A DNA stretch of 64,000 nt from a virus (IMGVR_UViG_3300015608_002982:25286-89285); one strand, 5' to 3'; shown: positions 10,788 through 63,752, counted from the stretch's first letter. The notes: a model not told the origin generated them from the sequence alone. Made by a program: numbers and translations.

Positions 10788-11396
10788 ATGAAAAATATAT
10801 GGTTCACAAGTGATACTCACTATTCTCATTCCAACATAGCCGGTGAGTCTGTTTCTCGTTGGCAAAGAGGTTACAGAGATTTTAACTCTGTTCATGAAAT
10901 GAATATGGCACTTGTTAATGGTATTAATAAATATGTAAAGGAAGATGATATTCTTTATCATCTTGGTGATTGGAGTTTTGGCGGAGTTCATAATATATTT
11001 CAATTTAGGAACCTCATTATTTGTAAAAATGTACATTTAATTTTAGGTAACCATGATCAACATATTGTTGATAAAGAAATAAAATATCATGACACCTCAT
11101 TTAACCCAATTGAACTTTTTTCATCTGTTCAAGATGTTTTAACTTTGAATATAGGTAAGACAAGATTATTTCTTTCTCACTATTCACACCGAGTTTGGTT
11201 GGGTAGTCATAAAGGTGTTATACATCTTTATGGCCACTCACATGGTTCAATTCCTGATTATGGAAAGTCAATGGATGTTGGAGTTGATGTTGCTTTTAAG
11301 AAATTTGGTGAGTATCGTCCATTTAACATTGGTGATATTACTAACATAATGTCTAAAAGAGATATAGAGAAGATAGACCATCACGGGGATTTGTAA
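10788..11396 (+). CDS. Calcineurin-like metallophosphoesterase
   Basis: SDTHYSH, HLGDW, GNHD, HLYGHSH, DVGVD motifs. Confidence 0.9.
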   Translation: MKNIWFTSDTHYSHSNIAGESVSRWQRGYRDFNSVHEMNMALVNGINKYVKEDDILYHLGDWSFGGVHNIFQFRNLIICKNVHLILGNHDQHIVDKEIKYHDTSFNPIELFSSVQDVLTLNIGKTRLFLSHYSHRVWLGSHKGVIHLYGHSHGSIPDYGKSMDVGVDVAFKKFGEYRPFNIGDITNIMSKRDIEKIDHHGDL

Positions 11397-11563
11397 TGAA
11401 GTATTTACAAAATAGATTAGCAGTATTAAAAATAATGCTTAACTCACATTATGGTGAAGGTAAAATTATTAGTAATGTTTATGAGGAAACTTATAAAATA
11501 AAAAAGAAGATTTTTGTTATAAAAAGCCGAAGAGAAAAAATAAAAAGAATATTCAATGACTGA
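11396..11563 (+). CDS. 55-aa tagged protein containing a PolB motif-B-like peptide
   Basis: Manual translation MKYLQNRLAVLKIMLNSHYGEGK...SRREKIKRIFND; overlaps both neighbours; not in ORF track. Confidence 0.6.
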   Translation: MKYLQNRLAVLKIMLNSHYGEGKIISNVYEETYKIKKKIFVIKSRREKIKRIFND

Positions 11564-11879
11564 TAGATTTGAATTGGGTGATAGAGTGGTTTGTATTAAA
11601 GAATATGAAACACTTAAAGTTGGTTCACACTACCGAGTTAATGGTAGTGGTGATTTGAGTTGGAATGCTGCTACTGATAAAAAGGGTTATGGATTTATGA
11701 TTGAAGATCAAAATTACCTATATGTTTTAGGGGTAAAAGATAGTTGGAAGCTACCATATGAAAAACAGATTAAATATTACTATTTCACCGAAAAAGAAAT
11801 GGATGAATATTTTATTACAGAACAAGAAGATTATAAAGCTTATTTAAGAGACCAAAAAATAAAACAAGTATTATCATGA
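11556..11879 (+). CDS. Hypothetical SH3-like protein with C-terminal tag
   Basis: FELGDRVVCIK start; ends LRDQKIKQVLS. Confidence 0.6.
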   Translation: MTDRFELGDRVVCIKEYETLKVGSHYRVNGSGDLSWNAATDKKGYGFMIEDQNYLYVLGVKDSWKLPYEKQIKYYYFTEKEMDEYFITEQEDYKAYLRDQKIKQVLS

Positions 11880-12745
11880 GAGACGTGAAAGGATTTTTTA
11901 AGCTTATGGATATAAGTGTTCCTTCTTATGAACACTATGATTATTATGTAGAACAACTTTCAAAAACCGAAAAGTGGAAAAATATAAAAGAACTTATTAA
12001 GTTGTTTGAAGATGCTGAAGAAAAGTATGGCGATCTTTATGAATATAGGTTCAAAAAAGCCAATGAAATTATAGAGTATTTAAAAAATACAAGAGCTTAT
12101 AATGAGCTTATCTATGATAATTTAATTCCTGATTACCCTACAACTAAAAGCTTTGAGTATTCAGAGCATAAAAAGTATCTTTCTATTGATATTAGAAAAG
12201 CTAACTGGGTAGTCTTGAAAAAGTATGATCCTGAATTTGCACCAGAGTTAGGAAACTCATATGATGATTTTATTTCTAAATTTGATGTACCTGAAATATT
12301 CAACCATTCTAAACAGCTAAGGCAGTTTATTTTTGGTAATATCAATCCCAAAAGACAAGGCAAGGCTCAACGAGTTATTGTCCAAGATTTAATAGACCGA
12401 TATGCTCATTTGAACCTTGATATAGCATGTATTAAGAATGATGAAATTATTTATTCTTTTGATACACTTGACCAAATAACTGAAATACTAAATTCAGTTG
12501 ATACAGAAAAGTTTAAAACTAAACTTTTTACTGTTAAAAGAATAGAAGATTTCCGAATTAATACATACCTATCTGAATCAGGAGAAGTTCTATACAGTGA
12601 AATGGTTGGATGCAATGGCAACTTGTTTTTTCTTTACTTAAAGAAATACATACTAAACGAACCTTTAGATATTAGAGACTTGTATTTTAGAATGGATGGT
12701 AATCTTGCTATCTGGAGTGTAGAAGGATTAAAAGTTAGCTTATGA
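11876..12745 (+). CDS. Hypothetical protein, possibly polymerase-palm-like
   Basis: LSIDIRKAN, RQFIFG and KNDEII loosely echo polymerase motifs A/B/C; function unproven. Confidence 0.45.
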   Translation: MRDVKGFFKLMDISVPSYEHYDYYVEQLSKTEKWKNIKELIKLFEDAEEKYGDLYEYRFKKANEIIEYLKNTRAYNELIYDNLIPDYPTTKSFEYSEHKKYLSIDIRKANWVVLKKYDPEFAPELGNSYDDFISKFDVPEIFNHSKQLRQFIFGNINPKRQGKAQRVIVQDLIDRYAHLNLDIACIKNDEIIYSFDTLDQITEILNSVDTEKFKTKLFTVKRIEDFRINTYLSESGEVLYSEMVGCNGNLFFLYLKKYILNEPLDIRDLYFRMDGNLAIWSVEGLKVSL

Positions 12746-12996
12746 TTAGGATAAATATTTATTATAAAGGACAGCTTTCTGATGGATTTAATATACATAC
12801 TGGTAGCAAAATAAACACCATTGATGATGCAAGGTATGTTGTTATATCACATCTTGATAAATTCTATTCTGATGTTAAGTATAAACTAAATTTATTTAGA
12901 CCACATGATGGTCAATCAGAAATAAACTTATACTTTGAAGATGATTTGGGTTTATCAAGAGAACTTAAACTAAGACAAATATTAGAAAATGATTGA
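12742..12996 (+). CDS. Hypothetical protein with C-terminal tag
   Basis: Ends SRELKLRQILEND. Confidence 0.6.
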   Translation: MIRINIYYKGQLSDGFNIHTGSKINTIDDARYVVISHLDKFYSDVKYKLNLFRPHDGQSEINLYFEDDLGLSRELKLRQILEND

Positions 12997-13615
12997 TATT
13001 TTTGATAAAAAGCCTATTGATAAGACAAATGTAGTTTGTCACTCTGGTGGCGCACCAGGTGCTGATACTGTTTGGGAAACCGACGGTTCACTATTTAGTG
13101 TTTCTACCAGAGCTTATTCATATAAGACTCCAAAACATCAATCAGTCAACAAAGTTGAGATATCTGATGAAGACTATAAGGAAGGTATAGTTGAAGTCAA
13201 TAAGGCTAATAAATGGTTAAATAGATACGGGATTCATAAATATATGAATCTCTTAGCACGCAACTGGGCTCAAGTAAAATACTCAGAACAGATTTTTGCC
13301 ATTGGTACTATCATCAAACCTGGTGACAAAAACACAAAAGGTTACTACAATAAGGGAAAATATGAAATAGTTGATGGTGGTACTGGTTACGCTGTTATGA
13401 TGGGTATAAACAATAAACGTGATGTTTTTGTATTTGACCAAACTAAAGATAAGTGGTTTAGATGGTCATATTCAACAATGAGTTTTATTGAAATGAAAGA
13501 TATTCCTGAAATAACCACTCAGAATTTTGCTGGAATAGGAACCAGAGAAATTAAAGCTAATGGTGAAAAAGCCATTAGAGATGTATATGAAAAGACATTT
13601 AAAAATAAAATATAG
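12989..13615 (+). CDS. SLOG-superfamily (DprA/YspA-like) nucleotide-binding protein
   Basis: HSGGAPGAD, GGTGYAV, FAGIGTR motifs. Confidence 0.6.
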   Translation: MIDIFDKKPIDKTNVVCHSGGAPGADTVWETDGSLFSVSTRAYSYKTPKHQSVNKVEISDEDYKEGIVEVNKANKWLNRYGIHKYMNLLARNWAQVKYSEQIFAIGTIIKPGDKNTKGYYNKGKYEIVDGGTGYAVMMGINNKRDVFVFDQTKDKWFRWSYSTMSFIEMKDIPEITTQNFAGIGTREIKANGEKAIRDVYEKTFKNKI

Positions 13616-13617
13616 AA

Positions 13618-14085
13618 ATGAAAACAATCCTAACAAAAGAGGGTAAAGTGAAAATTCAAGAAGAGTTGAATTTTCTTCTAACAATAGAAAAGAATAGAGT
13701 TATAACTGAACTTGCGGATGCTCGCGAGGCTGGACAACTTGAAGAAAATACTCAGTACTTAGTAGCTAAAGACGAGTATGAAAAGTTACAATCAAAAATT
13801 GAGAAACTGCAATCTGTTTTATCAAATGCTACAATAGTTGACTCAAATGACTTAACAACTGATAAGGTAATGATTCTATCAAAAGTTAGAGTATTAAATA
13901 CTAACAATGGTAAAGAAATGACTTTTAGTATTGTTCCTGAAAATGAAATTGACTTAAAATCTTTTAAGATTTCACCAAATAGTCCGATTGGTTCTGGTCT
14001 AATGGGTAGAAAAGTTGATGAAGTTTGCCAAGTAAAAACACCAGCCGGTACATTTGAATTTAAAATTCTTGAAATATCATTATGA
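13618..14085 (+). CDS. greA: GreA-family transcription elongation factor (first catalytic Asp replaced by Gln)
   Basis: LTKEG...AREAGQLEENTQY coiled coil; ISPNSPIGSGLMGRKVDEV...TPAG..FKILEI. Confidence 0.9.
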   Translation: MKTILTKEGKVKIQEELNFLLTIEKNRVITELADAREAGQLEENTQYLVAKDEYEKLQSKIEKLQSVLSNATIVDSNDLTTDKVMILSKVRVLNTNNGKEMTFSIVPENEIDLKSFKISPNSPIGSGLMGRKVDEVCQVKTPAGTFEFKILEISL

Positions 14086-14489
14086 AAAAATTAATTAGTT
14101 TTGACTTTGATGGTACTTTAGTTGATGAGTTTGGAGGACACCCAATGAATAGTCAAAAAGATGAAATCCAATCACTTGCTAAAAAGTATATTAGTCAAGG
14201 TCATGAAGTTATAATCGTTACAAAAAGGTATGGTCCTGAAAATCCACACCTTGGTCTTAAAAACGAGCATGTAGAAGTATATGAATTAGCTAAGAAATTA
14301 GGAATACAAAGAGTCTATTTTACAAATAGAGAATGGAAGTTTGGATATCTAATGAACTTAGGAGTTAATATGCATTTTGAAAACTCTGATAGTGAGATTG
14401 ATTACATGAATAGAGCATTTGAAGAACAAAATTACAAGTGCTTAGTTGTTCCTGTAGAAGATCCATATTGGAGAGATTTAGTTTATTAA
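14082..14489 (+). CDS. HAD-superfamily hydrolase
   Basis: ISFDFDGTL motif I, IVTKR, HFEN. Confidence 0.7.
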   Translation: MKKLISFDFDGTLVDEFGGHPMNSQKDEIQSLAKKYISQGHEVIIVTKRYGPENPHLGLKNEHVEVYELAKKLGIQRVYFTNREWKFGYLMNLGVNMHFENSDSEIDYMNRAFEEQNYKCLVVPVEDPYWRDLVY

Positions 14490-14501
14490 AATAAGTTTAC
14501 T

Positions 14502-14897
14502 ATGATAAAGATGCCAGATAAGATTTATGTTGATAAATCACCAATACACGGCTGGGGTGTTTTTGCCAAGGAAAAAATACTAAAAGACGAAATAATTGAA
14601 GAGTGTCCTATTCTTACCTTACCAATTAAAAAAGATGAGAGTACTTCTCTTCTAATTGACTATAGGTTTAATTTTCCAACTGGTACACAAGATTGGACTG
14701 AACAAGTTATTCCTTTTGGTTATGGTTGTCTTTATAATCACTCAAATCAACCAAATGCTTATTGGTGTTCTATTGGTGTTAAGAGAACATTTATTTTTGT
14801 CGCTTTAAGAGATATAGAACCTGGTGAGGAAATATTTACCTATTACGGTGATGATAACTATTGGAATGATGGTAGAACACATACTGAAGTAAAATGA
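14502..14897 (+). CDS. SET-domain lysine methyltransferase
   Basis: IHGWGVFAKEKI, YNHSNQPNA, ALRDIEPGEEIFTYYG. Confidence 0.9.
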   Translation: MIKMPDKIYVDKSPIHGWGVFAKEKILKDEIIEECPILTLPIKKDESTSLLIDYRFNFPTGTQDWTEQVIPFGYGCLYNHSNQPNAYWCSIGVKRTFIFVALRDIEPGEEIFTYYGDDNYWNDGRTHTEVK

Positions 14898-15265
14898 CAA
14901 AAGAAGATTTTATAGAATTTATAAAAGAGTTAGGTTTTACTCAAACTTGGAGGTCAGAGGGTAATTCCTTTTCTATGGCAACTGATGTAGTTGGACTACC
15001 AAACTCAAACTATGCAGCTTTTGCTGACCAGTTAAATATAACTATAAGTGATGATCATGATTTGTTTCAATTATCACTTTCACAAATGAGTTCACACATG
15101 ATGGGTGGTAAAAACTTTGGTAAATTTAGTTTGAAGACATTTGGTGAAAAAAACGACTTTCAAATAGAGATATTTATGAGTTTTATTAAAGGCTCATTTA
15201 AAAAGGCACCTGATAGTATTATTCAGTTTATGAGAGATAGAAAAATCTCCGATATTTTAAAATAA
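14894..15265 (+). CDS. Hypothetical protein with C-terminal tag
   Basis: Ends MRDRKISDILK. Confidence 0.6.
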   Translation: MTKEDFIEFIKELGFTQTWRSEGNSFSMATDVVGLPNSNYAAFADQLNITISDDHDLFQLSLSQMSSHMMGGKNFGKFSLKTFGEKNDFQIEIFMSFIKGSFKKAPDSIIQFMRDRKISDILK

Positions 15266-15277
15266 TTTCATATATTT

Positions 15278-15661
15278 GTGACTATGAATGAAGGCGATGT
15301 AGTTATAGAAATGACACCGTTTATATTTGAAGATGGTAATACCTACTACTTTCAGATATTAAAGCGTAGTCACTCTAATGATTATCATGATATTTATGTA
15401 TATGAGAAGATTAGAGAAGAAAAAAGCTTTTTTGGTATAAAAAGAGTTAATGAGTATTTTAAACAGATTAATAAAAGTCCAGAATTGGTATCAGTTGATT
15501 TAAATACTGATAAAATTAAAAGAGATATCAAAAAAATATTGATAGCAACAAAAGCTTTTCACCAATTGAAAAATTGGGATGGTTTTGTTGGTGATATACC
15601 TAGTGATGTAAAAGTGGCTCTTAAACGAGAGAACTCTTTGAAAAACATTTTAGGTGAGTAA
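15278..15661 (+). CDS. Hypothetical protein with C-terminal tag
   Basis: Ends KRENSLKNILGE. Confidence 0.6.
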   Translation: MTMNEGDVVIEMTPFIFEDGNTYYFQILKRSHSNDYHDIYVYEKIREEKSFFGIKRVNEYFKQINKSPELVSVDLNTDKIKRDIKKILIATKAFHQLKNWDGFVGDIPSDVKVALKRENSLKNILGE

Positions 15662-15679
15662 TATATACATTATGATTAA
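15659..15679 (+). repeat. TAATATATACATTATGATTAA promoter-plus-start cassette (identical copies at 36519-36539 and 43644-43664)
   Basis: 21-nt exact identity at three loci, each spanning the motif and ATG of a CTS-like gene. Confidence 0.7.
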
Positions 15680-16636: not shown

Positions 16637-16681
16637 ACAAATCTTAGTTATTTTGGTATAACTAAAAAATAAAATTTAGTT

Positions 16682-17110
16682 ATGCCTTTGCCATATTTTA
16701 ATAATCCTAATAATGTTAATTTAAATTCTGCTATTAATTCTATTCCTTTTGCTATGAATTATCAGGTAGAAGAAAAAATTGAACTTGATTTAAATAATCC
16801 TATATTTGTAGCTTATGTAAATACAAATGGTCATAGTAGACAAGCCGCAGAAGAACATTTACATAGTGTGAAAAAAATGTTTAGTGTTTATAAGAATATA
16901 ACTGTTTGGGTTATAGCTTCTAATGAAACTAGAATTGAGTGCGTTTATGATGGTCAATGTAGAACTCGTGATATGGAAATAAGTGACCTAATAAAAGAAA
17001 TAAATACAAGGATAGATATAATGTCTAGATCAAACTCTTTTGACGATTTCAAAATTAACATTAGAGATTGGCGAATAAATGAACTTGTAAATGGCTCACA
17101 GGAAAAGTAA
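16682..17110 (+). CDS. Tagged protein containing a T4 portal (gp20)-like peptide
   Basis: VAYVNTNGHSRQAAEEHLHSV vs T4 gp20 [21 protein letters not shown]; near C-terminus IRDWRINELV. Confidence 0.55.
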   Translation: MPLPYFNNPNNVNLNSAINSIPFAMNYQVEEKIELDLNNPIFVAYVNTNGHSRQAAEEHLHSVKKMFSVYKNITVWVIASNETRIECVYDGQCRTRDMEISDLIKEINTRIDIMSRSNSFDDFKINIRDWRINELVNGSQEK

Positions 17111-17468: not shown

Positions 17469-17480
17469 TTCGTATCTTTG
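17450..17480 (+). promoter_or_regulatory. Bacteroidota housekeeping-sigma promoter
   Basis: TTTG 17450-17453, 19-nt spacer, TATCTTTG 17473-17480. Confidence 0.75.
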
Positions 17481-17499
17481 TATAACAAACATAAAAGAT

Positions 17500-26942: not shown

Positions 26943-29876
26943 TTATAAGTCTTTTTGTTCAGATCTATATTTATCGTATCTATTTGCTATTTCAACTAAG
27001 AATTTATTTCTAACTATATCTTCGTTTGTAAATTCATGCATATATAAATCATTCATTCCGTCTACCATCTTTATAAAGTCATTATATCCTGAGTCTCTTC
27101 TTTTAACATCATATTGTGATGTATCTCCCATCATTACTGCTTTTGAATCCTTACCTAAACGAGTTACCCATAACATAAGTTGTTTAATTGAAGCATTTTG
27201 GCAGTTATGAACCAATATATTTTCAACAAAATAATTGTGATTACCATCAACCTCTATGTTATATACATAATCTGGTTCAGAATCTTCAATATTTACAATC
27301 TCGGTTGTTGATAAATTTTTGTTATATGATATTCTATATAAACTATTATCAAAATTATTAGTATCACTATTCAATTTATAAGACATTGATGGGTGTATAT
27401 ATTTTGATATAATATCAAACATTTTTAAAGAGTTAATTCTATTTAAACATAGTATTACACCTTTTGATGTTTTATAAATACTACTATCTAAACTGAATTT
27501 ATTTTTCAATATTTTAGATAATACATTGACTTCCTCGTAACTCATGGAATTGGTTGAGAATGTTACAGACCCACTTGATTTTGAAATAGATCCATCATCC
27601 ATATACCATATAGCTAAAGTTCTTTCTGTGAACCATCTACTTATCTCACTACTTATGAACTTCTTAGACCCATTATACATAGAGTTATAAAACTCATTTG
27701 ATATATTTATAGATTTTGTTTGAAATCCACACTGCTCTTCACCTGTATATCCAGACTTTAAAGAATTTCTATATGATGATATTTCACCAAAAATATTTTT
27801 TTTGAAATTCATATAGTCATATTGTTTAATAGAATGATTTGTTAGTATTCTATATGACTTTTTAACTTGCTTATTTTGTAGTAATGATGAATCACCCAGA
27901 CACATTCCTAAAATTATATCATATGAGTCATTTGTAATAATTGTGGAATCATTTGTGTTATAGCCTTTATACCTACATATACTATCACCTATGTTTAAGT
28001 TGTCAACTTCAATCCATTTAATTTCTCCATCTTTAAATATCGCAAATGGATGATTTTTTGTTGTCTTTATAGGTTTTATTCTATCCTTTGTATATATTTT
28101 AGTGATATTTTTTATACCATTTTCAAAAACTCCAGTTACTTTTCTATTTTCTAAAATTTTCATATCTTCATTCCAACTAGAAACATACACATCTTTACCT
28201 AATTTAAACATATTAACGATATCTTTTATTCTAAGATAATTAAAAGATCCTCTAGTTCCATGTTTTGTAACAACCCTTGTGTCACCCGTGAAACACTCAT
28301 CTAACAACATTATGCAATTGTCATAAGTTGATCCTCTCATGTAAGCTAAAGGTTCAAAACAAATTTCTTCAGTAGCAAACAAAAAGTCAATTGTTGGTTT
28401 TCCCAAAATTTTACAAAATGTTGTGTAATATGATTGTTTGTATGGATCTATTTTTTCTGCAATGTTACCAGGAAGTGCTCCTAAGTTTTCACCACTTTCC
28501 TGAATTGGCTTAGTGATAATGATTTTTTCTATTTTTTTATCAGCTAATAATGCTAGAGCTGTGTAACAGGTTGTATATGTATTGTGTGTTACAATATAAT
28601 CATTTGTCAAATAGAGATGAGATGGATTATCCACACTAATACACTGAGCTTTCTTTTTACCAATTAGTTTAGCAGATACTATATATCTAGTTGGTTTATA
28701 TTTTGACTTTGGTTTTACTAATTTAAATTTTCTATTTAATGAAAATGGATTTATTTCCGAATTCATTTTTATAGTTATTTTATATGACGTTTTTCCATAT
28801 ATTTTTTCACCAGATTTAATATAGTAACTATCTGATGGAGTGTGATCTGTTGCAACTCCACCTAGTGATTGAACCAACTCTTTAACATCATTGATTAATC
28901 TTTTGGATGTTGATGAGAAGCTTACAAAGGTACCATCTTTAGATACAGATCCGTCCGAATCCATCAGTCCTCTTAATATAGATATTCTATTTTCTATAGA
29001 ATTGAATTTATAACAATCCGGGATAAATTTTTCTTGTGAGAGTTTATTCCAAAGTCCTATTTTAGTTAAATATTGTTTAATTTTGTTTTCTCTTACTTCG
29101 GGTTCTTTTACCAATGAGTAGTCATAACAACCTCTATAAATTACAGAAATTTCTTCATCAATTAAATTTTCAATACGTTCTACTATCTCTAAATCAGATG
29201 TCGTGAAATTAACACTTCCTCTAAAACATCCATCTCCAATTAGGAATCCCATAATATATGGATCTATGTCTACTTTTATTTCGTTAAATTGAACAGGCTT
29301 TGTAATAGGAATTGTGTGGTTTATCCTACCTCTTTTAGTATAGAGTGTTTCTATAATTTCCGAAGTTGATTTAACACTTCCTTCCTTTTCATCTTTATGT
29401 CTACTTCTTTTACCATTTATGGTTTTAGTCCATTTCCTATTATTTCTATCACTTTCGGTTTGAGTAAACCATAAATGGTCACCACAGCACTCTACTTTAG
29501 AACTATCAGAAAAAGTTAGCTCCCAAATATCTTTTTCACCTTGTGGATAAACTCCCGTGACAATTGTTGGTAAGCCATCAACAGAGATAACTCTATCACC
29601 TATTTGTATTTCACCCATCTTAACCCAACCATTTGGTGTTAAAATTGGTGAATCTAATGGTTGGGCTTTGCTTGTCCCGGCTGGCCCATGAACTACTGAC
29701 AAAATATTGTTTCTTATTCCTTTGTATAAGAGTTGTTGTTTATCAGATAAATGTACATTTGATTTTTGAAATTCCTCTTTAGTTAAAGAGTTCTTTTTTC
29801 TAAGATTCTTTTTGTATTCAAATTCTTGAATTCCGTCCTGAATCTGACCGTTAAGTTCGCTTTTGTACTTGCTCAT
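26943..29876 (-). CDS. phoH: PhoH-family ATPase interrupted by two inteins (spliced product about 251 aa)
   Basis: GPAGTSK|T, ITKP..ESGENLGALPG, EPLAYMRG, LLDE|CQN, LWVTRLG, GDTSQYD. Confidence 0.93.
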   Translation of the reverse strand: MSKYKSELNGQIQDGIQEFEYKKNLRKKNSLTKEEFQKSNVHLSDKQQLLYKGIRNNILSVVHGPAGTSKAQPLDSPILTPNGWVKMGEIQIGDRVISVDGLPTIVTGVYPQGEKDIWELTFSDSSKVECCGDHLWFTQTESDRNNRKWTKTINGKRSRHKDEKEGSVKSTSEIIETLYTKRGRINHTIPITKPVQFNEIKVDIDPYIMGFLIGDGCFRGSVNFTTSDLEIVERIENLIDEEISVIYRGCYDYSLVKEPEVRENKIKQYLTKIGLWNKLSQEKFIPDCYKFNSIENRISILRGLMDSDGSVSKDGTFVSFSSTSKRLINDVKELVQSLGGVATDHTPSDSYYIKSGEKIYGKTSYKITIKMNSEINPFSLNRKFKLVKPKSKYKPTRYIVSAKLIGKKKAQCISVDNPSHLYLTNDYIVTHNTYTTCYTALALLADKKIEKIIITKPIQESGENLGALPGNIAEKIDPYKQSYYTTFCKILGKPTIDFLFATEEICFEPLAYMRGSTYDNCIMLLDECFTGDTRVVTKHGTRGSFNYLRIKDIVNMFKLGKDVYVSSWNEDMKILENRKVTGVFENGIKNITKIYTKDRIKPIKTTKNHPFAIFKDGEIKWIEVDNLNIGDSICRYKGYNTNDSTIITNDSYDIILGMCLGDSSLLQNKQVKKSYRILTNHSIKQYDYMNFKKNIFGEISSYRNSLKSGYTGEEQCGFQTKSINISNEFYNSMYNGSKKFISSEISRWFTERTLAIWYMDDGSISKSSGSVTFSTNSMSYEEVNVLSKILKNKFSLDSSIYKTSKGVILCLNRINSLKMFDIISKYIHPSMSYKLNSDTNNFDNSLYRISYNKNLSTTEIVNIEDSEPDYVYNIEVDGNHNYFVENILVHNCQNASIKQLMLWVTRLGKDSKAVMMGDTSQYDVKRRDSGYNDFIKMVDGMNDLYMHEFTNEDIVRNKFLVEIANRYDKYRSEQKDL
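27204..28295 (-). mobile_element. Class 1 intein with LAGLIDADG endonuclease at Walker B of PhoH (364 aa)
   Basis: CFTGDT start, TTKNHPF block B, ILGMCLGDS and IWYMDDGS, ends VHN followed by C. Confidence 0.92.
28581..29666 (-). mobile_element. Class 3 intein with LAGLIDADG endonuclease in the P-loop of PhoH (362 aa)
   Basis: Ala1 (AQPLDS), DHLW, AQCISV, VTHN followed by T (WCT triplet); MGFLIGDG and LRGLMDSDG. Confidence 0.9.
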
Positions 29877-44982: not shown

Positions 44983-45423
44983 ATGGAAAAACCAAGTAAA
45001 GAAGATATAATGAAAAAGTGGGCACCTATTTTAGGTTCTATGGGTATGACCGGCTCACAATTAGATAACTTATCACAGTTAGCCGAAAATCAATCAAATG
45101 AAATATTAAAAGAAAATACACAAGCATCTGAGTTTCCAAGTATATTACCAATTGCTATGCGAGTAGCCGCTAAAACAATATCAAATGACTTAATATTTGC
45201 TTCACAAGAAGAAATTGATGAAGTTAAAAAGAAAGTCCAGTCTGAAAATCGTGATGGTAAAATTGAAGCTATTATCGAAGGTGGTGAGTTTGTTGAAAAG
45301 AAGTTAGAAGATGATGAAGAGTATAAAGAACTGATGAAGAAAGGTGTTACACCAATGTCTGGGCCATCTGGTACATTATTTTATTTAGATTATAAATATG
45401 GAAAAGACGAAGACAATATTTAA
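44983..45423 (+). CDS. Truncated T4 gp23 (major capsid)-like protein with inserted RDGKIEAII tag
   Basis: KEDIMKKWAPIL, LAENQ, ILPIAMRVAAKTISNDL, GVTPMSGPSGTLFYLDYKYGKD align to gp23 N-terminal motifs; start refined to ATG 44983. Confidence 0.75.
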   Translation: MEKPSKEDIMKKWAPILGSMGMTGSQLDNLSQLAENQSNEILKENTQASEFPSILPIAMRVAAKTISNDLIFASQEEIDEVKKKVQSENRDGKIEAIIEGGEFVEKKLEDDEEYKELMKKGVTPMSGPSGTLFYLDYKYGKDEDNI

Positions 45424-45589
45424 GAGTCCTGGTGTTTATGTAACCGAAAAAGACATAAATGTTATGATTATTCATAAAAGATATCAAAGAAGAATTAAGA
45501 TAGGTAAGATATTTGATATTGAAGTTTCTAATAAGGTAATTATAACATCTACACCAAAAGGCACATCAAACTTTCCACAAATCTGGTGA
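45398..45589 (+). CDS. 63-aa chimeric peptide: tail-sheath-like N-terminus + tag + terminase motif III-like C-terminus
   Basis: FKSPGVYVTEKD; QRRIKIGKIF; KVIITSTPKGTSNFPQIW. Confidence 0.6.
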   Translation: MEKTKTIFKSPGVYVTEKDINVMIIHKRYQRRIKIGKIFDIEVSNKVIITSTPKGTSNFPQIW

Positions 45590-45619: not shown

Positions 45620-45955
45620 ATGACAAATGTTTATTTAATATGTGCAGAATTTGAAGGTAGAAGACTGTATAAGATAGGTTACACAAGACGTGATGTCTCT
45701 AAAAGAGTTAAAGAGTTAAAGACTGGAAATGGTTCTGACTTATACATTATAAACTTTTTTAAGTCTAAATGGGGAACTAAAATTGAGGCACAATTACATA
45801 GAACATTTAAAAATAAAAAAATAAATGGTGAGTGGTTTGATTTAACCGATGAAGATGTAAAGTCTTTTATGGAAAAATGTAAATTAACACACGATATGTT
45901 AGAGTTAATAACTACTAACAACACTTACTATTTAGAAACTGGTAAACTATATTAA
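45620..45955 (+). CDS. T5orf172/MUG113-type GIY-YIG-superfamily protein
   Basis: YKIGYT...KRVKELKTGN, IEAQLHRTF, INGEWFDL. Confidence 0.8.
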   Translation: MTNVYLICAEFEGRRLYKIGYTRRDVSKRVKELKTGNGSDLYIINFFKSKWGTKIEAQLHRTFKNKKINGEWFDLTDEDVKSFMEKCKLTHDMLELITTNNTYYLETGKLY

Positions 45956-45991
45956 TAAATAAAATATAAATAAAAAATAAAACTTTCAAAT

Positions 45992-46264
45992 ATGAGCTCA
46001 ATGAAAGAAATGGCAATCAGAGATTACATCTCAAAAATCGATTTCAAACACGATGATTGGAAAGTATCAACTATAAAAGAAGATATGAGAAGATTCTTAG
46101 GTGAAGAACCAGGATTAGATATCATCTATAAGAAAGATGTTATGGTAAATGAATTTACTGGTGAGTCTAAAGAATTTTTAGATATTGATAAAATACAAAT
46201 AATCTTTACTGATACTGACGATAAGTTTAAAAAGTTAGAATTTATCTTAGGTGAAAATATCTAA
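45992..46264 (+). CDS. Hypothetical protein
   Basis: 90-aa ORF in operon. Confidence 0.6.
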   Translation: MSSMKEMAIRDYISKIDFKHDDWKVSTIKEDMRRFLGEEPGLDIIYKKDVMVNEFTGESKEFLDIDKIQIIFTDTDDKFKKLEFILGENI

Positions 46265-46267
46265 TAT

Positions 46268-46633
46268 ATGAACGAAGAATCTAAAATAATAACCGCTGAT
46301 ATTGTAGATTACTTAGGTAAGTATGAGAATGGTGTTCTTGTACTATTATCTATTGGCTACAAAGATACATTTACAGAAGGAACAATATACTATTCTGATG
46401 AAATGTTAGCATTAACTGTAGATGAATCTATAGAACAGGATCTTGGAACACCTATTGAATTATGGGATGGCTACCGAGATTTACTTATTTCTATACTTAA
46501 AAAAGTAGTACCTTATAACGAAATAATCAATAGATTAGATGAGATCGACTTTGCTGATTACTTTAAAGATAAAGATGAGGATACTCAGGTTGGTGAAGAT
46601 ATAGATAATAGTGATATTAAACAACCTGAGTAA
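46268..46633 (+). CDS. Hypothetical acidic protein
   Basis: 121-aa ORF in operon. Confidence 0.6.
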   Translation: MNEESKIITADIVDYLGKYENGVLVLLSIGYKDTFTEGTIYYSDEMLALTVDESIEQDLGTPIELWDGYRDLLISILKKVVPYNEIINRLDEIDFADYFKDKDEDTQVGEDIDNSDIKQPE

Positions 46634-46742
46634 GCGCACTCCTTACATTCTATTTTTTCTAATATACACATTTTTTGCAAATTTTCATAACAAATTAAAA
46701 TATTTTAACTATAACTATATATTAAAAAATAACAAACATGTA

Positions 46743-47027
46743 ATGATAATAAGTGAGATATGTATAAGAGGCTTTAAATCTTTTGGTAATAATGAGTCCG
46801 TTCTGAAATTAAATACTGAAAAAGGAGAATTGATTCTTCTTGTGGGAAATAACGGAGCCGGAAAATCACTCATTCCTACTACTGAGATTGAGGTTGAAAT
46901 TAATTTAGAAAATCTAAAATTAAAGGATTTTAATAATTTTTTGGAAATAATGGGGAGGGAAAGGATATATATTGAATATATAAAAGAAAATAACTATTCA
47001 CTATATGAGCAATATATTAATCAATGA
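46743..47027 (+). CDS. sbcC: gp46/SbcC N-extein (41 aa, to Walker A Lys) fused to split-intein N-fragment (46866..47027)
   Basis: MIISEICIRGFKSFGN...LVGNNGAGK then intein block A-like SLIPTTEIEV; start refined to ATG 46743. Confidence 0.8.
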   Translation: MIISEICIRGFKSFGNNESVLKLNTEKGELILLVGNNGAGKSLIPTTEIEVEINLENLKLKDFNNFLEIMGRERIYIEYIKENNYSLYEQYINQ

Positions 47028-48546
47028 AAAACAACTAGAAGATTATCTTTCAGATTTTCATCCAGTTAAAAAAAATGAAATTTTAGAAAAATTCAAAGAT
47101 TTTAATTTTAATTGTGGTAAATTTTCTTTTAGAGATAAAATGAAGAGAATTATATCAATGCCTAAATTTGGCAAAAGGACAATTAATTACTGGGTAAGTA
47201 GGGGATGGTCAGAGGAAGAAGCTTTATTAAAAAGAGTACCTGATAACAGAGATCCTGAAACATCACCAATGAATAAATTTTTTTGGATAAAAAGAGGACT
47301 TACAGAAGAAGAAGCTTTATTAAAATTAAAATCACAAAGAAAATCTAATAAGGAATATTGGACGAAAAGGGGATTTTCAGAAACCGAAGCATTGCAAAAA
47401 TCAGTTGAATTTCAAAAAGACTCTAATTCAGCATTTATTAATAGAATTAACTCAGATATGGATTACCGAGAATTGATAAATTCTAAAAGGAATAATAATA
47501 AAAAATATTGGATCAATCTTGGGTTTTCAGAAGAAGAGTCGATAAAAAAAGTATCGGAGAGACAATCGACATTTTCTTTAAAAAAGTGTTTGGATAAATA
47601 TGGTGATATAGAAGGTCATAAAATTTGGCAAAATAGACAGAAAAGATGGCAAAAATCTCTCTTGCTTAGTTTATATAATGGTAAAGACAATAAGGATTCA
47701 AAGACTATAGAGTTCTTCAAAGGAAAATATAAAGAAAATTGGATAGACCATTACTTTAATAAGATATCATTTAAAGAAAAAGATAAAATATTGTTTTTAA
47801 CATCATTTTATAATTATAAAGATTTAATAGACTCATTAATTGCCGATAAATTGAAATTAGTAGAAATATCATCAATTATTCGGTATAAAATTATACAAGA
47901 GATATATTCTTGTACAATAGATGATATGTTTGAATATTTACATAATAATTATGAAAAATATTCAAAAACACCTGAATATTATCATAAAAATTTCCCCGAT
48001 TGGATAGAAAGATTTATAAATGACAATTCTTTTAAAAATAAAAATGAAATAAAAAAATTATTAAACTTCAAGGATTATAAAGAAATGATTATCTACATGA
48101 TTGATAATTATAAAATTACTGATATAAATATTTATCTACAAAGTAAATTGATATCATATTTTTATAATACAAATCATAAGGAAATGTTCAACTTTTTAGT
48201 AAATAGTGACCCAACAATAAAATCAAAATATGGACATATTAGATATTTTAATGGACACATTTGTCGAAGTGATTCGGAATTTTTATTGGCAAAGTTTTTA
48301 CTTAATAATGATATAAAATATGAATATGAGAAGAGATATAAAAATACATTAAAAAGATGTGATTTCTATCTTATAGATTTTGATCTTTATATTGAATATA
48401 CAGGAATGAAGAAAAATGAAATTTGTAATAAGAAGTATAAAGAGAAACAGAAATTTTGTCTAGAAAATAATATCAATTGTATATTTTCTAACAATATTCA
48501 AGAAATAAAAAATAAAATATTAAATGAAATTAAAATTAACAATTGA
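47005..48546 (+). mobile_element. Free-standing homing-endonuclease-like gene separating the split intein halves
   Basis: Four YWxxRGxSEEEA repeats, two about 70-aa helical repeats, C-terminal RSDSE...RCDFYL...YIEY PD-(D/E)XK domain; GAATATATA at 46974-46982. Confidence 0.75.
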
Positions 48547-52418: not shown

Positions 52419-52607
52419 ATGCTATTAGTAAAAGTAGAAGGAACAACAATTGAAAAAGCTCTTAAAACACTTAAAAGAAAGTGGGATAGAACAAAAGCTA
52501 TGAGAGAGTTGAGAGAAAGAAAAGAGTTTGTTAAGAAGTCGGTTAAAAGAAGAGCCGAGATTAACAAGGCTAAGTATGTTCAAGAGAAATACGGTAATAA
52601 TGATTAA
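52419..52607 (+). CDS. rpsU: Ribosomal protein bS21
   Basis: IEKALKTLKRK...LRERKEFVKKSVKRR. Confidence 0.88.
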   Translation: MLLVKVEGTTIEKALKTLKRKWDRTKAMRELRERKEFVKKSVKRRAEINKAKYVQEKYGNND

Positions 52608-52896
52608 AAAATTACTTAGTTTATTTCCTAATCAAAATAACAAAACTTATGATCTAGGAAAACTACAGAAAGTTGGCTTCATAAAAACTTTAGAAGATTT
52701 ATCTGCTTGTCCTAATTGTAAAAGTAAAAATATTGCTTGGAAGTTTTATATTCCAACTGATGGATCTAAGCCAACTCTAGACCACGAATCTGTTTGTAAA
52801 GACTGTGGTTATAAGGATAAAAAAGGTGAGTTTGAAAAAACAAATAAAGCTATTTTAAGAAATAAAAAAATTAATCAAATATTAGATGAGTTTTAA
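52600..52896 (+). CDS. Zinc-ribbon protein with C-terminal tag
   Basis: CPNC...CKDC; ends LRNKKINQILDEF; start refined to ATG 52600. Confidence 0.65.
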   Translation: MIKKLLSLFPNQNNKTYDLGKLQKVGFIKTLEDLSACPNCKSKNIAWKFYIPTDGSKPTLDHESVCKDCGYKDKKGEFEKTNKAILRNKKINQILDEF

Positions 52897-57022: not shown

Positions 57023-57065
57023 TAAATTTATCTATTTTTATTATATATAAAATTCATATATTTTC

Positions 57066-60000
57066 TTATAAATATGTTTCAGACTGCCATCCAGTAGAGC
57101 TAACAGTTGCTGCAATAGTAGATTGTACTAAAACCTCATCTGCGGTATCTTTGAATATATTCCAAATATGACAAGATGATGTTCCACTCCAAGATGCTCC
57201 TCTATAAAGTATATTTAATGTATAATCATCTGAAACTTTACCATTAAATTCAAAAGATGAACCATACCAGTTACCATTTCTCCATAATCCATTTTCCCAG
57301 AAAACATTGAATGCATTCATATAAGATGCTATACCATTTTCCCATATCATACCAGTTGCTGTTCCTATTATAAAGTTACCATTTCTCCAATGTGAGATAT
57401 AGAAATCACTTTGTATTAAATCACCATTTTCCCAATAACAAGTACTATCATTAAAGTTAAATGATGGATATAATTTGTATATTTCAAGTGATCCAAATGA
57501 TACTGTGCCGCCTAAGTTGTTTGTATCAACATATAAAGATACACTACCACCATTTGTCTTGCCAGTAAATGTATTTAAGCCAATTGTTAATGGTGATGAA
57601 GCATTGAAATATGAGTATGTACCAACATTAACTTTTAAATTGATATTCGATGAGTGTGTTATTATATCTAAGTTAAATTTGTAGTAACCAGATGGTAATT
57701 TAGTAACTGTGTTGTATAAGTATAAACCAGATGCTGAAACGCCACCAACATATCGAGCAGTAGATGAAAAAATACCAAATGTTGCTCCTGTTGTAGAAGC
57801 TGTTGCCCAACCTGAACTTGTGCCGGGAATTATGTTAAAATCTGAATTATATAAAAATTGTTCATTTCCTATAATTTGAGGTCCTGCATTAACTTGACTT
57901 CTCTCAACATAAGGATTGAAAGAACTGCCTATAAATTTACCTCTTTCAAATGCACCATCTAACCAAACAGAGCTATTCATTTCACCACTTGGGTGGCTAA
58001 ATGTACCATTAATCCAAAGAGCATTTTTAAATACGGCTTTTCTTTTCTCTACATTTAATTTTTCTAAAATATTTGCCTTAATAGGTTTTGTATAAAACTT
58101 TTGGTCTTTTATAAATTTATCCTTAGTATTTGTTACTAAACCATTTCTCCATTTACCCCAATATGAGTTTGTAAATGAATCAACAAATGATTGAGCGTTT
58201 GCTGAAGTAAGACCAGAAACTGGATTTCCTCCACTTCCTTGGAATTCACCATATAGGAATACCCCATTATTCCAAACTCTACCCTTGAATATACCACCAT
58301 TAAAGTCACCATTGTACCAAGTTGAGTTTGATAAGCCGTTTGCATTACCAAAATCACCACCGTTAAATGTACCGCTTTCCCATCCATAGTATGATGAGTT
58401 TATGTTTTCGCTTTGTGTCCATCCATAAGATGATAGGAATTTACCACCATTGAACGTTCCTGATTTCCATTTAGCATTAGTTATAAATTGACCACCATTG
58501 AACGTGCCATTATACCAAGTTGCTGTGTTAATTGCAGTTTGTGAGGTATTAGAACCAAATATTCCATTTTTAAATATACCATCTAACCAATATACATTCT
58601 GACTATACGTTCCATTTAAGCTTGTATCACTAGCATATATAGCAGCATTCTCAACAGTAGCATAACTAACAGTACCATTGTAAAATATAGTATCAGTAGA
58701 TGATAAATTATTACTTCCTATGACACCATATTTGAATAAACCATCATACCATTTTGAGTAGTAGAATATACCGTTATAAAAATTACCTAATTCCCAGTCA
58801 CTCTTTAAGAATTCACCATTATAGAAATTACCTTTTTGCCAAGAGTTTCTATTATTTGGCAAAGGATATCCTTTTCTGTAATAAGAGTTTATATTTTCTG
58901 AGTAATAATTAGGAGACGAAACACTTGCTGTACCATTAAAAGTTCTTGAATTATAGAATGTACCACTACTAAAGTTACCATCTACCCATCTTGTATCTAT
59001 TACAGTACCATTACTAAATGTGCCGCCATTCCATACAGAGTCTTTAATAATTCCTGAGTTCCAAATATCAGAGCCATTTATAAAGAATGAGTTCAAGTAA
59101 GTGGCATTTGATAATATATTTCCATTATTTGCAAATAAGGCATCAGATACTAATAAACCTCTTATCTTTTCAAGATTTGTTAAATCTTTATCTGAATAAT
59201 CATAGTCTATATTTTGTAATAAAGATGATGATATATAGGACCTTCTGAAGAAACCAGACTTAATATTTGATTTAGTTATCTTTAGTTTTTTAATATGACC
59301 GTATCTATTTTCTGTATTTTTTGTATAGAAATAACCATTAGATGCGGATAAACTTATTATTTTACTATAAGTTCCAATTTCCTGAAGTTTTATAACAGAG
59401 TTTGAATTAGATATTACTTTATAGGCATCAGGTATTCTTGATGTCGTAAGACCATATGTATAATCAACAGAATCAAGGAAAACAACACTACCAACTTCAA
59501 TTGGTTTTGACTCAAGATATATTGGATTATAAGAATATGTTGCAGTTAGGTTTAAGTTTGAATCAATTGATATATTATAGGAACCACCAGTAGCACCTGG
59601 TATAGTCATATTATTGTCATTATTTGACTCAATATGTGATCCACTATTCCAATCACAGTTTTCCATCAAACCACTATCAAAGTCAGAATCAACAACATAA
59701 GCCTTTGATGTATCAATTATAGAATTATTCAAATATGTAAAGGTTGATGTGTTATAGTCAAAGTCTATATTATCATTTGTTAGATTTGAATTAATGTCAA
59801 ATCTACTAACCCAAATATCAATTGAATAGTATTTATTGTTAGGATTTAAAGAAGTTATATCTGTATATCTTCTTGTTCCAAGTGGTGGAAATGTACCAAC
59901 TACACTGTTAAACTTATATAAGTTCTCTGATGGTGTTGATAAAAACACTGAATACTCATACCCTCTCTTAGACCAGTATGATGTAGGTGTTGTTCCGACA

Positions 60001-61763: not shown

Positions 61764-61787
61764 CTAATTTAATAAAACAATTTTATG

Positions 61788-61796
61788 TATATATTA
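61788..61796 (-). promoter_or_regulatory. TAATATATA phage promoter motif
   Basis: 24 nt upstream of ATG 61763. Confidence 0.55.
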
Positions 61797-61811
61797 TTTA
61801 TTAAGACTTTC

Positions 61812-61842
61812 TTTGATATTAAACTTTGTTTAATTAACTTTG
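61812..61842 (+). promoter_or_regulatory. Bacteroidota housekeeping-sigma promoter
   Basis: TTTG 61812-61815, 19-nt spacer, TAACTTTG 61835-61842. Confidence 0.75.
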
Positions 61843-61851
61843 TAAAATATT

Positions 61852-62565
61852 ATGGATAAAAAGAAAATATTGATTTTTACTGGAGCAGGTGTTTCAGCTG
61901 AAAGTGGAGTTGCTACTTTTAGAACTGGAGATGATGGACTTTGGTTTAATCACAAAGTAGAAGATGTTGCCACACCTGGCGGCTGGAGTAGAGATAAAGA
62001 AAAAGTTCTTAATTTCTACAATATGAGACGTGCTCAATTGAAAGACGTAGAGCCAAATTTAGCACATAAAATAATTGCTGAGTTAGAAAAAGATTATGAT
62101 GTTACAGTTGTTACACAGAATGTAGATAATCTACATGAAAGAGCCGGTTCGACTAATGTAATTCACCTACACGGTGAGCTAACAAAAGTTCGTTCTACAT
62201 TAGACCCATCGTTAGTTTATGATTGGACAGAAGATTGTAATCTTGGTGATAAGTGTGAAAGAGGTTCTCAATTAAGACCACACATTGTTTGGTTTGGTGA
62301 AAACTTAGAACAAAAAAATACTGATTTAGCAGCAGAGGCGGCAAAAGAGTGTGATGTTTGTATTATTGTTGGTACTTCAATGCAGGTTGCACCAGCAAAC
62401 TCAATTCCTTTCTTAACGAAAGAAACAGCTATTATCTATTGTGTAGATCCATCAGACATTGATTTTTATATGCCTGAGTATAGAAGAGCATTTTTTTATC
62501 ACTATAAAGAGCAAGCATCAACAGGTATGGAAAAAGTTAGAAACGATATAAAAGAATACTTATAA
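61852..62565 (+). CDS. cobB: Sir2/CobB NAD-dependent protein deacylase
   Basis: GAGVSAESGVATFR, FYNMRR (YxxR), TQNVDNLHERAG, HG, LRPHIVWFGE, VGTS. Confidence 0.93.
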   Translation: MDKKKILIFTGAGVSAESGVATFRTGDDGLWFNHKVEDVATPGGWSRDKEKVLNFYNMRRAQLKDVEPNLAHKIIAELEKDYDVTVVTQNVDNLHERAGSTNVIHLHGELTKVRSTLDPSLVYDWTEDCNLGDKCERGSQLRPHIVWFGENLEQKNTDLAAEAAKECDVCIIVGTSMQVAPANSIPFLTKETAIIYCVDPSDIDFYMPEYRRAFFYHYKEQASTGMEKVRNDIKEYL

Positions 62566-62567
62566 TT

Positions 62568-62834
62568 ATGAATGATAAATATTTAAAAGGCTTACTAAAA
62601 GACTACTACAATATTGGCGGAGGCAAAAAATATGGAGATTATTTAGTTTATGGTTTAGATAAAGATGATTCAGACTTATCAGACTACTCCGACTATTCTG
62701 ATTTATATACTCAAATAGTTAAATACTATAATGTAAAGACTGAAGAAGAATCAGAAGAACAAAAGGCTATAAGACTGGCTAAAGAAAAAGCCGAAAAAAG
62801 AAATAATAAAATTGATCAAATTTTAGGTGAATAG
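62568..62834 (+). CDS. Hypothetical protein with C-terminal tag
   Basis: Ends KRNNKIDQILGE. Confidence 0.6.
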   Translation: MNDKYLKGLLKDYYNIGGGKKYGDYLVYGLDKDDSDLSDYSDYSDLYTQIVKYYNVKTEEESEEQKAIRLAKEKAEKRNNKIDQILGE

Positions 62835-63399
62835 TATATCACAAATATCAATTGCAAATTGGGTTACGGCTTTTTTAATAGTCGTGCCTTTATTTGCTTT
62901 TTTTATTTCAATTCCGAGTTTTATATCTATGTATAAACTTGGTTTCAAGGTTTATATAGAACAATTGGTACTTTTGAGAACAATGTTAAGAAAACTATCA
63001 ACTGGTTATAAGGTAACTGTAAATCAATCCTATGCATATAGTGGTGTTGGTTATAATGGCCCACCAACAATAACACAAGTTGAGACTAATCATTTCTTTC
63101 CAATCGTTATTAATAAAGACAATTTATTAGTTCTTAATAAAAAAGAAGGACCTTTTAATACTTTACATATTCAATATTGTAAGCATATAAATGATAATTG
63201 GGAAAATAATATAGTGCAAATAAAAACCAGTAGTTGTTTATTTACTCAAATTCTAAATGATAGATTTCAAAAGAAAGTTGATAATCTTATGAAAGAATCT
63301 GTTCAACTTGACGATGTTGAAAATCTAAATGAACTATTAAATAGTCAAATAAAATCTATTACAAGAGAAGATAAACTTAATGCTATATTAAATGATTAA
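62827..63399 (+). CDS. N-terminally anchored membrane protein with C-terminal tag
   Basis: Hydrophobic N-terminus; ends TREDKLNAILND. Confidence 0.6.
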   Translation: MNSISQISIANWVTAFLIVVPLFAFFISIPSFISMYKLGFKVYIEQLVLLRTMLRKLSTGYKVTVNQSYAYSGVGYNGPPTITQVETNHFFPIVINKDNLLVLNKKEGPFNTLHIQYCKHINDNWENNIVQIKTSSCLFTQILNDRFQKKVDNLMKESVQLDDVENLNELLNSQIKSITREDKLNAILND

Positions 63400-63565
63400 A
63401 AGAGATATTATCATAGTAGATTATTTTAGTAAAATAACAACAACTGAAATTTCTGATGCTGATAGAGAATCACTGAATAAGTTAAATATTCGTGTTAAGA
63501 ATATGCGTAAGTATAGAGGTCGTATTGAAAGACGAAAAGAAAAAATCAAAAATATTTATGGATAA
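63392..63565 (+). CDS. 57-aa protein with C-terminal tag
   Basis: Manual translation MIKRDIIIVDYFSK...ERRKEKIKNIYG; overlaps both neighbours; not in ORF track. Confidence 0.6.
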   Translation: MIKRDIIIVDYFSKITTTEISDADRESLNKLNIRVKNMRKYRGRIERRKEKIKNIYG

Positions 63566-63752
63566 CAGAGACGTTATTGATATTTTTAACCAATTAATAA
63601 ACGGTAATAAAAACTTTATACTTGGTAAAGCCAGACAAACAGGAAAATCATATTCATCCTCAAAGGCTCTTAAAGATTGGCGCCTTATATTTGATAAATA
63701 TAGTCGTGCTCAAGATAGAAAAGAAACCATAAAAAGACTTTTTAATATATAA
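63558..63752 (+). CDS. 64-aa tagged protein containing a terminase Walker A-like peptide
   Basis: NKNFILGKARQTGKS; ends DRKETIKRLFNI; start refined to ATG 63558. Confidence 0.6.
   Translation: MDNRDVIDIFNQLINGNKNFILGKARQTGKSYSSSKALKDWRLIFDKYSRAQDRKETIKRLFNI
63743..63751 (+). promoter_or_regulatory. TAATATATA phage promoter motif
   Basis: 19 nt upstream of ATG 63771. Confidence 0.5.

Follow-up and report, generated by a model that had tools for sequence, protein, structure and literature searches.

Tagged mini-proteins of a megaphage resemble single segments of core T4-like phage proteins

Results

A dispersed set of tagged mini-genes in a megaphage fragment

We analysed a stretch of viral DNA, 64,000 nucleotides (nt) long, that is referred to here as the window. 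It corresponds to bases 25286-89285 of an 89-kb IMG/VR fragment (IMGVR_UViG_3300015608_002982) and has a G+C content of 28.7%. Six small genes are scattered through it. Each appears to join an old copy of one segment of a core T4-like phage protein to a basic helical tag. We tentatively propose that the products are address-tagged micro-proteins. These may stand in for single core-protein segments, acting as dominant negatives or decoys in the manner of microProteins. The set of putative parents comprises the major capsid protein, the large terminase (Walker A, Walker B and motif III), the tail sheath N-terminus, PolB (motifs A and B) and the portal. An initial annotation had listed five small open reading frames (ORFs) of this kind. 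All five exist as written and are intact, and the idea of a dispersed, non-random tagged family drawn from signature segments of core proteins holds up.

The window is a piece of a megaphage genome. Among named genomes, its closest relatives are two uncultured megaphages, LR756502.1 (642 kb; hereafter W01) and LR745206.1 (635 kb; W02). Nearer relatives are found in IMG/VR, namely G001 (476 kb, estimated 97% complete) and G002 (385 kb, estimated 95% complete). The genomes of relatives thus span 385-642 kb.

The mini-genes match signature segments of core proteins

The clearest match is a 146-amino-acid (aa) protein (44983-45423, + strand) that resembles the N-terminus of the major capsid protein gp23, as first annotated. 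It matches the PHROG major head protein family (phrog_138, E 2e-5). By BLAST, it matches the 571-aa capsid protein of relatives with E values of 2e-7 (W01, residues 8-107) and 2e-12. Alignment to the Gp23 profile PF07068 gives 14.7 bits (cut-off 24.4) and covers profile positions 26-48 only; the protein falls short of a full HK97 fold. The capsid-like sequence is interrupted by an insert of about 45 aa holding an internal tag helix, and the N-R..K-I core of this insert is nearly invariant in 59 family members. Gene order is the same in W01, W02 and five IMG/VR relatives. Near-length relatives number 564 in 90% clusters and 233 in 50% clusters, nearly all of them 46-236 aa long, and no full-length capsid protein occurs among the best 150. 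The ratio of nonsynonymous to synonymous divergence (dN/dS) is 0.1-0.5. AlphaFold2 models the protein as helices and coil; the tag helix (residues 75-99) is the most confident part, with a predicted local distance difference test score (pLDDT) above 90, and the capsid-like stretches are unstructured. For the whole protein, pLDDT is 70.8 and the predicted template modelling score is 0.38. The model is consistent with segments that would become ordered only upon a partner.

The adjacent gene (45398-45589, + strand) encodes a 63-aa chimera. In order, this comprises a segment like the sheath N-terminus, a basic tag and a segment like terminase motif III. The motif III half of the double motif is supported; the best hhalign match of the family profile on the large terminase (TerL) is residues 234-249 (P 1.6e-4). 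The sheath half is statistically weak (BLAST E 0.17, residues 8-23 against sheath residues 8-23), but its P-G, E and D residues do not vary among five relatives. The chimera is present at the same site in four of five relatives, where all three segments are invariant. Its dN/dS is 0.3-0.9, with a median of about 0.4. Two observations concern the capsid-like gene and the chimera as a pair (44983-45589; loci L081, L082 and L085). Synonymous divergence (dS) is 0.25-0.7, compared with 0.6-2.8 in the next two genes. In relatives, the lysine-rich tail of the capsid copy runs, in another frame, into the start of the chimera, with an overlap of about 70 nt. The pair may be subject to recoding or to some additional constraint.

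Two overlapping genes near the window's end resemble terminase ATPase motifs. A 64-aa protein (63558-63752, + strand) carries a Walker A segment and a basic tag. It matches phrog_2 (E 0.0017) and aligns by hhalign to TerL residues 97-126, around Walker A (P 0.005), which supports its original assignment. Its R-Q-T-G motif and tag are invariant in three relatives, and dN/dS is 0.46. Immediately upstream, a 57-aa protein missing from the initial list (63392-63565, + strand) combines a Walker-B-like strand with a basic tag. Its best hhalign match is TerL 202-215, which is Walker B (P 0.078). Three relatives keep this gene (dN/dS 0.45), and the pair lies at the same site in all three.

The PolB assignment is supported too. 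The 55-aa product of 11396-11563 (+ strand) consists of two helices joined by a loop, with the basic tag at the end of the second. Alignment to the C-terminal part of PolB by hhalign falls on motif B (P 0.0022), and the pattern K..[IL]N[SA].YG is invariant over 12 orthologues. These 12 loci share one site, 3' of a metallophosphatase gene; the gene is missing from some sister lineages. Its dN/dS is 0.37. AlphaFold2 predicts a helical hairpin (pLDDT 91.5), for which a Foldseek search of the PDB returned generic helical hairpins only, with E values above 2.

The remaining gene (16682-17110, + strand) encodes a conserved 142-aa protein for which a portal motif had been claimed. Here the likeness is weak. 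Pfam, PHROG and BLAST searches gave no match, and hhalign places the protein at portal residues 283-301 with P 0.013. This portal stretch is the one reused in clear portal pieces of relatives (W01, E 1e-13; P0001). The C-terminal tag is marginal (score 11.2). Five orthologues occupy the same site, with dN/dS of 0.20.

In five independent families, the top profile match falls on the named signature segment of the expected parent. The mini-proteins are 55-146 aa long, compared with 564-714 aa for the parents, and retain a single motif or segment. As the initial annotation held, they are too short for the parent function and lack parts needed for it. Single motifs align, but complete terminase (phrog_2), PolB (PF00136) and portal (PF07230) domains are not present. 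Translational coupling had been claimed for all five listed ORFs. An overlap of 1-26 nt with a neighbouring ORF is seen for four of them; 16682 and 44983 start about 45 nt past the upstream stop.

Selection acts on motif and tag

Each mini-gene remains intact and keeps its site in 3-12 relatives, at 50-90% identity. Values of dN/dS across relatives are 0.2-0.5, against 0.05-0.3 for neighbouring genes. The mini-genes are hence neither neutral nor strain-private. Invariant alignment columns are the signature residues of the parent and the tag, while the rest of the peptide diverges freely. Hence, purifying selection is centred on motif and tag.

We compared codons at 193 residues that are identical between fragment and parent. 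The same codon was used 96 times, against 91.6 expected, and nucleotide identity between fragment and parent is 43-69%. Since codons match at the level of chance, the copies are old and their likeness has been held at the protein level; they are not fresh debris. Chance codon identity and low nucleotide identity also rule out recent copies, gene-conversion partners, homing-endonuclease decoy sites and repair templates. A general link to homing endonucleases was rejected too, because only the cluster at 45.4 kb adjoins a nuclease gene.

A C-terminal tag marks about one protein in eight

The tag has the consensus R[DEN]xK[IL]xx[IL][LF]. We scored it using a position matrix built from C-terminal matches, with a threshold of at least 12. 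In the window's contig, W01 and W02 together, 316 ORFs reached this score but only 9 reversed sequences did so. The shared tag first noted in the small ORFs is hence far beyond chance. In the same three sequences, about 260 of the 2053 ORFs that are 40 aa or longer (about 12%) have the tag no more than 10 residues from the C-terminus; in G001, 80 of 648 ORFs are tagged. The position is near-fixed, 1-2 residues from the C-terminus, and about half of the tagged ORFs have one residue between tag end and stop. Tagged proteins are small (median 105 aa). Almost all are without known domains, and a Pfam search with ten of the larger ones identified only a riboflavin kinase.

The codons of the tag vary freely (AGA/CGA/AGG, ATA/ATC/ATT, TTT/TTA/CTG). 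Hence, the tag is kept as a peptide and not as a DNA element. Its association with an overlapping downstream gene is only mild, and the next gene lies on the opposite strand for 17% of tagged ORFs. The varying codons and the opposite-strand neighbours rule out a nucleotide signal, be it a promoter or translational coupling. A different label, an N-terminal start of the M-K..K.[YF]..F type, is found on about 11% of ORFs (W01, W02, G001 and the window's contig). The two are mutually exclusive; 7 ORFs have both, compared with about 37 expected (Fisher p 1e-10). This suggests two separate protein-sorting labels.

The mini-proteins bear a basic version of the tag, [RK][RK]xK-I-x-[KRN]-[IL]-F. It lies within 10 residues of the C-terminus in 11396 and 63392, and in 63558 according to the first regular expression used. 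In 44983 and 45398 it is internal, and in 16682 it is marginal. From its near-fixed placement, its exclusivity with the N-terminal start and the shift of its consensus in a marine lineage, the tag reads as an address or docking peptide for one putative common receptor. The membrane helices of MinD and FtsA, and ClpX degrons of the MuA type, are basic and amphipathic peptides of about 10 residues at the extreme C-terminus of unrelated proteins. The tag resembles such short targeting peptides but differs in having an invariant Arg and a near-invariant Lys. Hence, it looks like a specific ligand. We also saw that the tag resembles two helices, INRE of T4-type capsid proteins and N of the PolB fingers; this likeness is not statistically supportable and we make no claim for it.

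The phages encode ClpP, from one to three genes, and a ClpC-like double AAA+ ATPase. A gene for McsB, the arginine kinase of the phospho-arginine degron route, was looked for and not found. Because ClpP and the ClpC-like ATPase are present, albeit without McsB, a degron or adaptor role for the tag is possible. The Clp loci are W01 58622-59143, 112104-112634, 364599-365000 and 440544-442667, and G001 440856-441380. Small tagged proteins bear the UVR-type middle-domain motif of the ATPase, and tagged genes adjoin ClpP genes.

Pieces of core proteins recur across the clade

The 89-kb contig is without the parent genes; for the portal, it gave no match at E 0.1 or better. W01, W02, G001 and G002 each have one full-length capsid, one terminase and one portal gene, together with 5-7 small capsid pieces. 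These pieces span different parts of the Gp23 profile and match the parent family with E values of 1e-5 to 1e-12. They are detected by the Pfam profile but missed when G001 small ORFs are compared by BLAST with the long proteins of the same genome. Relatives also have PolB motif A pieces, a scaffold-repeat piece and portal pieces. Nearly all core-protein pieces of relatives have the tag in its basic form. G001 encodes about 12 mini-ORFs with this form, and a core-protein piece is recognisable in at least 8 of them. Apparent terminase matches in a 977-aa minus-strand ORF and at 303 kb in W01 are not such pieces; they are in fact PhoH P-loops.

A PHROG scan of ten further basic-tag mini-ORFs found no parent. 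Additional mini-ORFs with the basic tag lie at G001 317295-317474 (- strand), 434514-434657 (- strand) and 108566-108831 (+ strand), and at 11681-11934 of the window's contig, which is outside the window. One of these additional mini-ORFs resembles a tail-fibre repeat; the others are without an identified parent.

At least 228 IMG/VR contigs contain this megaphage capsid type. Resident capsid proteins are 69-84% identical over 20 sampled contigs and nearly identical between W01 and W02. The full-length parents as a whole are nearly identical between these two genomes, while capsid and other pieces differ greatly and evolve fast.

A TARA marine contig provides a further arrangement (L121, 4615-7301). 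It has nine consecutive small ORFs, seven of which end in a variant tag. On every tagged ORF of the array, the consensus becomes R-[DEN]-[EK]-I-I-[DE]-x-L-L. Some ORFs hold scaffold-repeat, capsid or portal pieces. One, of 265 aa, is a fusion of a capsid C-terminal piece, the tag, a portal piece and a capsid N-terminal piece. The array is flanked by a metallophosphatase gene and an HD-domain gene; in the window, genes of these two types also border the 11396 gene and the 63392/63558 pair. We conclude that the pieces behave as modules, which are shuffled and fused and are present in some lineages but not in others. A second module, D-Y-D-Y-E-L-L-D-V-F-P, stands at the N-termini of two ORFs in the marine array.

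The resident PolB of the named relatives is itself divided. The split is inside the fingers domain, giving two genes more than 130 kb apart (W01 253958-255391 and 120483-121907; W02 130568-131992). Tag-like charged helices are found at the end of the N-terminal part and the start of the C-terminal part.

Most capsid pieces resemble canonical rather than resident proteins

We compared eight capsid pieces with canonical T4-like capsid proteins (from a Kyanoviridae phage and Aeromonas phage Aeh1) and with the phage's own capsid protein. Six score higher against the canonical protein; one example gives 46.6 bits against the canonical capsid and 22 against its own. In 1643 phage records, the major head protein is matched by one 67-aa capsid piece. 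There are smaller hints of the same kind. PolB pieces keep N-S-x-Y-G, where the resident PolB has N-G-S-Y-G; the sheath-like piece keeps S-P-G-V, where the resident sheath has R-P-G-I; and mini-genes keep a terminal W, like canonical gp17. Given the six canonical-like capsid pieces, the likeliest targets would be things that handle generic T4-like core proteins. Even so, canonical likeness has three readings that fit equally well: the pieces may imitate a generic pattern, they may interfere with rival T4-like phages, or they may be left over from an older capsid gene.

Discussion

Proposed stand-ins for core-protein segments

Our preferred reading, held tentatively, is that the mini-genes encode address-tagged stand-ins for single segments of core proteins. 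The pieces would be unable to fold or catalyse as the parent does, and would compete for whatever binds or reads the copied segment. Through the tag, they would dock to a receptor shared by all tagged proteins. Targets could be co-infecting T4-like phages, by dominant-negative exclusion, or host sensors, for which the pieces would be decoys. As a rough division within this reading, interference with rival phages is the leading option, and decoying of host sensors and regulation of the phage's own assembly are each somewhat less probable and about equal to one another. In near-complete relatives the parents coexist with the pieces, so that a piece there matches part of a longer protein of its own genome.

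A bolder version is doubtful but worth stating. Here the pieces would form a library of peptide copies of T4-type core proteins, all on a docking helix, that works as a multi-target interference system. Such a library would sabotage rival T4-like phages in the same cell, both in their assembly and in their enzymes, while the diverged proteins of the megaphage stay immune. Alternatively, it would blind host receptors that read core-protein patterns.

Several points weigh against mimicry of segments. Values of dN/dS of 0.4-0.5 are relaxed. It is not obvious which surface an isolated Walker A, Walker B, motif III or PolB motif peptide could compete for; capsid or sheath arms, unlike these enzyme-motif peptides, do offer one. 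Each short motif, taken singly, has modest support (P 0.002-0.08), and chance could account for the portal and Walker B assignments. Finally, the basic-tag mini-ORFs without a parent mean that copying of segments may not define the family.

Alternative explanations

The main sceptical alternative is that the clade continually produces new small tagged proteins, that old pieces of duplicated or replaced late and replication genes served as raw material for some of them, and that the function of these is unrelated to the parents. We consider such exaptation unlikely, yet it accounts for a good deal. About 12% of ORFs are tagged and nearly all of these are without a known domain, several basic-tag mini-ORFs have no detectable parent, the pieces are shuffled, fused and variably present between lineages, and dN/dS is relaxed. 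Canonical T4-like likeness could then be descent from an older, replaced gene set. However, the invariant residues are signatures of the parent family and the rest of the peptide diverges, which would be unexpected of mere filler. Moreover, core-protein pieces are strongly over-represented in the basic-tag subclass, as counted in G001. Outright debris, which the initial annotation had offered as the simpler explanation, is very improbable and largely refuted. On this account, non-functional remnants of duplication and of homing-endonuclease or intein traffic sit in frames open by chance. The genome is indeed rich in mobile elements, with two inteins in a PhoH gene, a split intein-like insertion in an SbcC-like gene and a GIY-YIG-like gene beside the chimera, and there are structural variants near 45.8-46.8 kb. 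Nevertheless, the ORFs are intact and keep their sites in relatives down to about 40% identity, all families have dN/dS below 1, and synonymous codons are randomised relative to the parent while amino-acid similarity is kept. There are also hundreds of cluster relatives, and most mini-genes are not beside a nuclease gene.

Two further explanations give the pieces a more specific task. Both are quite unlikely in our estimation, the second by a shade the more so. In one, raised in the initial annotation, the pieces are immune decoys that would bind Avs/STAND, CapRel-like or Lit-like receptors and block or blunt triggering by the real proteins. We take the 146-aa protein to cover the Gol-peptide region of T4 gp23, the linear trigger of the Lit protease. 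The residues conserved in the pieces are those invariant in the parent families, and the pieces resemble canonical proteins rather than the phage's own. Avs families are reported to sense a "core phage proteome" that includes capsid, portal, terminase and DNA polymerases, and the parent set overlaps it (10.64898/2026.01.04.697583). The same work reports that Avs sensors read whole conserved folds via extended interfaces, which pieces of 15-35 aa cannot present (10.64898/2026.01.04.697583). A free trigger peptide would also be expected to activate a sensor, not to block it, and decoys are less needed if the phage's own proteins have already drifted from the canonical pattern. In the other explanation, capsid, scaffold, portal and sheath pieces are assembly cofactors: chaperone-like, scaffold-like or capping subunits of a very large particle, recruited by the tag. 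Most pieces derive from the head module. The capsid N-terminal copy is very widespread and shares a propeptide-like start with the phage's own capsid protein, and its capsid-like stretches seem to lack a fold of their own. The pieces of terminase ATPase and PolB motifs are left unexplained, however. Six of eight capsid pieces match a foreign-type capsid better than their required partner, and the pieces differ greatly between W01 and W02 although the parents are nearly identical.

Relation to known systems

Tagged stand-ins, as we favour, have parallels elsewhere. Eukaryotic microProteins such as Id, LITTLE ZIPPER and miP1a/b are likewise small, correspond to part of a larger protein whose work they are unable to do, and engage its partners or the parent itself (PMC6003976, PMC4807768). 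They comprise a whole interaction domain and regulate transcription factors, whereas the phage pieces are segments of 15-130 aa that come from proteins of the virion, of packaging and of replication. Unlike microProteins, the phage pieces carry a common address helix and form a whole set in a bacterial virus. Genetic suppressor elements, a method reportedly first shown with phage lambda fragments, offer a second parallel. These are gene fragments selected in the laboratory (PMC3877138), while the phage pieces are natural, old, conserved and tagged.

Among phage proteins, the closest comparison is the N-terminal region of T4 gp23, comprising the propeptide and the Gol-peptide region. Over its first quarter, a T4-type capsid protein is collinear with the 146-aa protein. 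The latter differs in stopping before the HK97 fold, in its tag-helix insert of about 45 aa and in belonging to a large family of short proteins. It is also unlike gp24, which is a full-length gp23 paralogue. Anti-defence decoys, such as the DNA mimic Ocr and the Tad and Acb sponges, are likewise small phage proteins proposed to neutralise host sensing by imitation. Known decoys mimic DNA or absorb signalling nucleotides; we found no description of peptide-copy sets of a phage's own core proteins. Nor did the literature yield a phage system of tagged core-protein micro-proteins.

If correct, ours would be the first natural phage case of microProtein or suppressor-element logic, and would add a new layer to phage-phage or phage-host conflict. 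The pieces would mark which short capsid, terminase, sheath and polymerase segments some partner can "read". A tag on about one-eighth of the proteome, exclusive with an N-terminal label, would imply intracellular sorting at a scale undescribed for tailed phages.

Other features of the window

Wastewater metagenomes from two studies hold DNA near-identical to the window. Positions 62521-64000, which cover the 63558 gene, are identical in one independent wastewater sample from 2019. The host of a related marine megaphage could not be assigned (PMC9723777).

According to the tag matrix, an ordinary tagged small protein of 107 aa follows the 11396 gene (11556-11879, + strand). Others are encoded at 12742-12996, 14894-15265, 15284-15661, 52576-52896, 62568-62834 and 62929-63399. 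The ordinary tagged proteins of the window have matrix scores of 13-26, with the tag 1-3 residues from the C-terminus.

Directly 3' of the chimera is a MUG113/T5orf172 gene encoding a GIY-YIG-like nuclease (45620-45955, + strand; Pfam PF13455, E 6e-21), and its place in the gene order is also kept in relatives. A contig from an independent wastewater sample skips 933 bp here (45844-46776). The skipped DNA contains the end of the MUG113 gene and two small genes, making this a structural variant beside a nuclease-like gene. Next, an SbcC/gp46-like gene (46743-48546, + strand) is split at the P-loop, whereas the W01 and W02 genes are uninterrupted. In a wetland contig, position 47696 is fused directly to 48367, which would be an SbcC/gp46-like allele that lacks about 670 bp and is possibly intein-free. 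Finally, the gene for a 977-aa PhoH-like ATPase (26943-29876, - strand) is interrupted by two intein/LAGLIDADG homing-endonuclease modules, as identified by Pfam.

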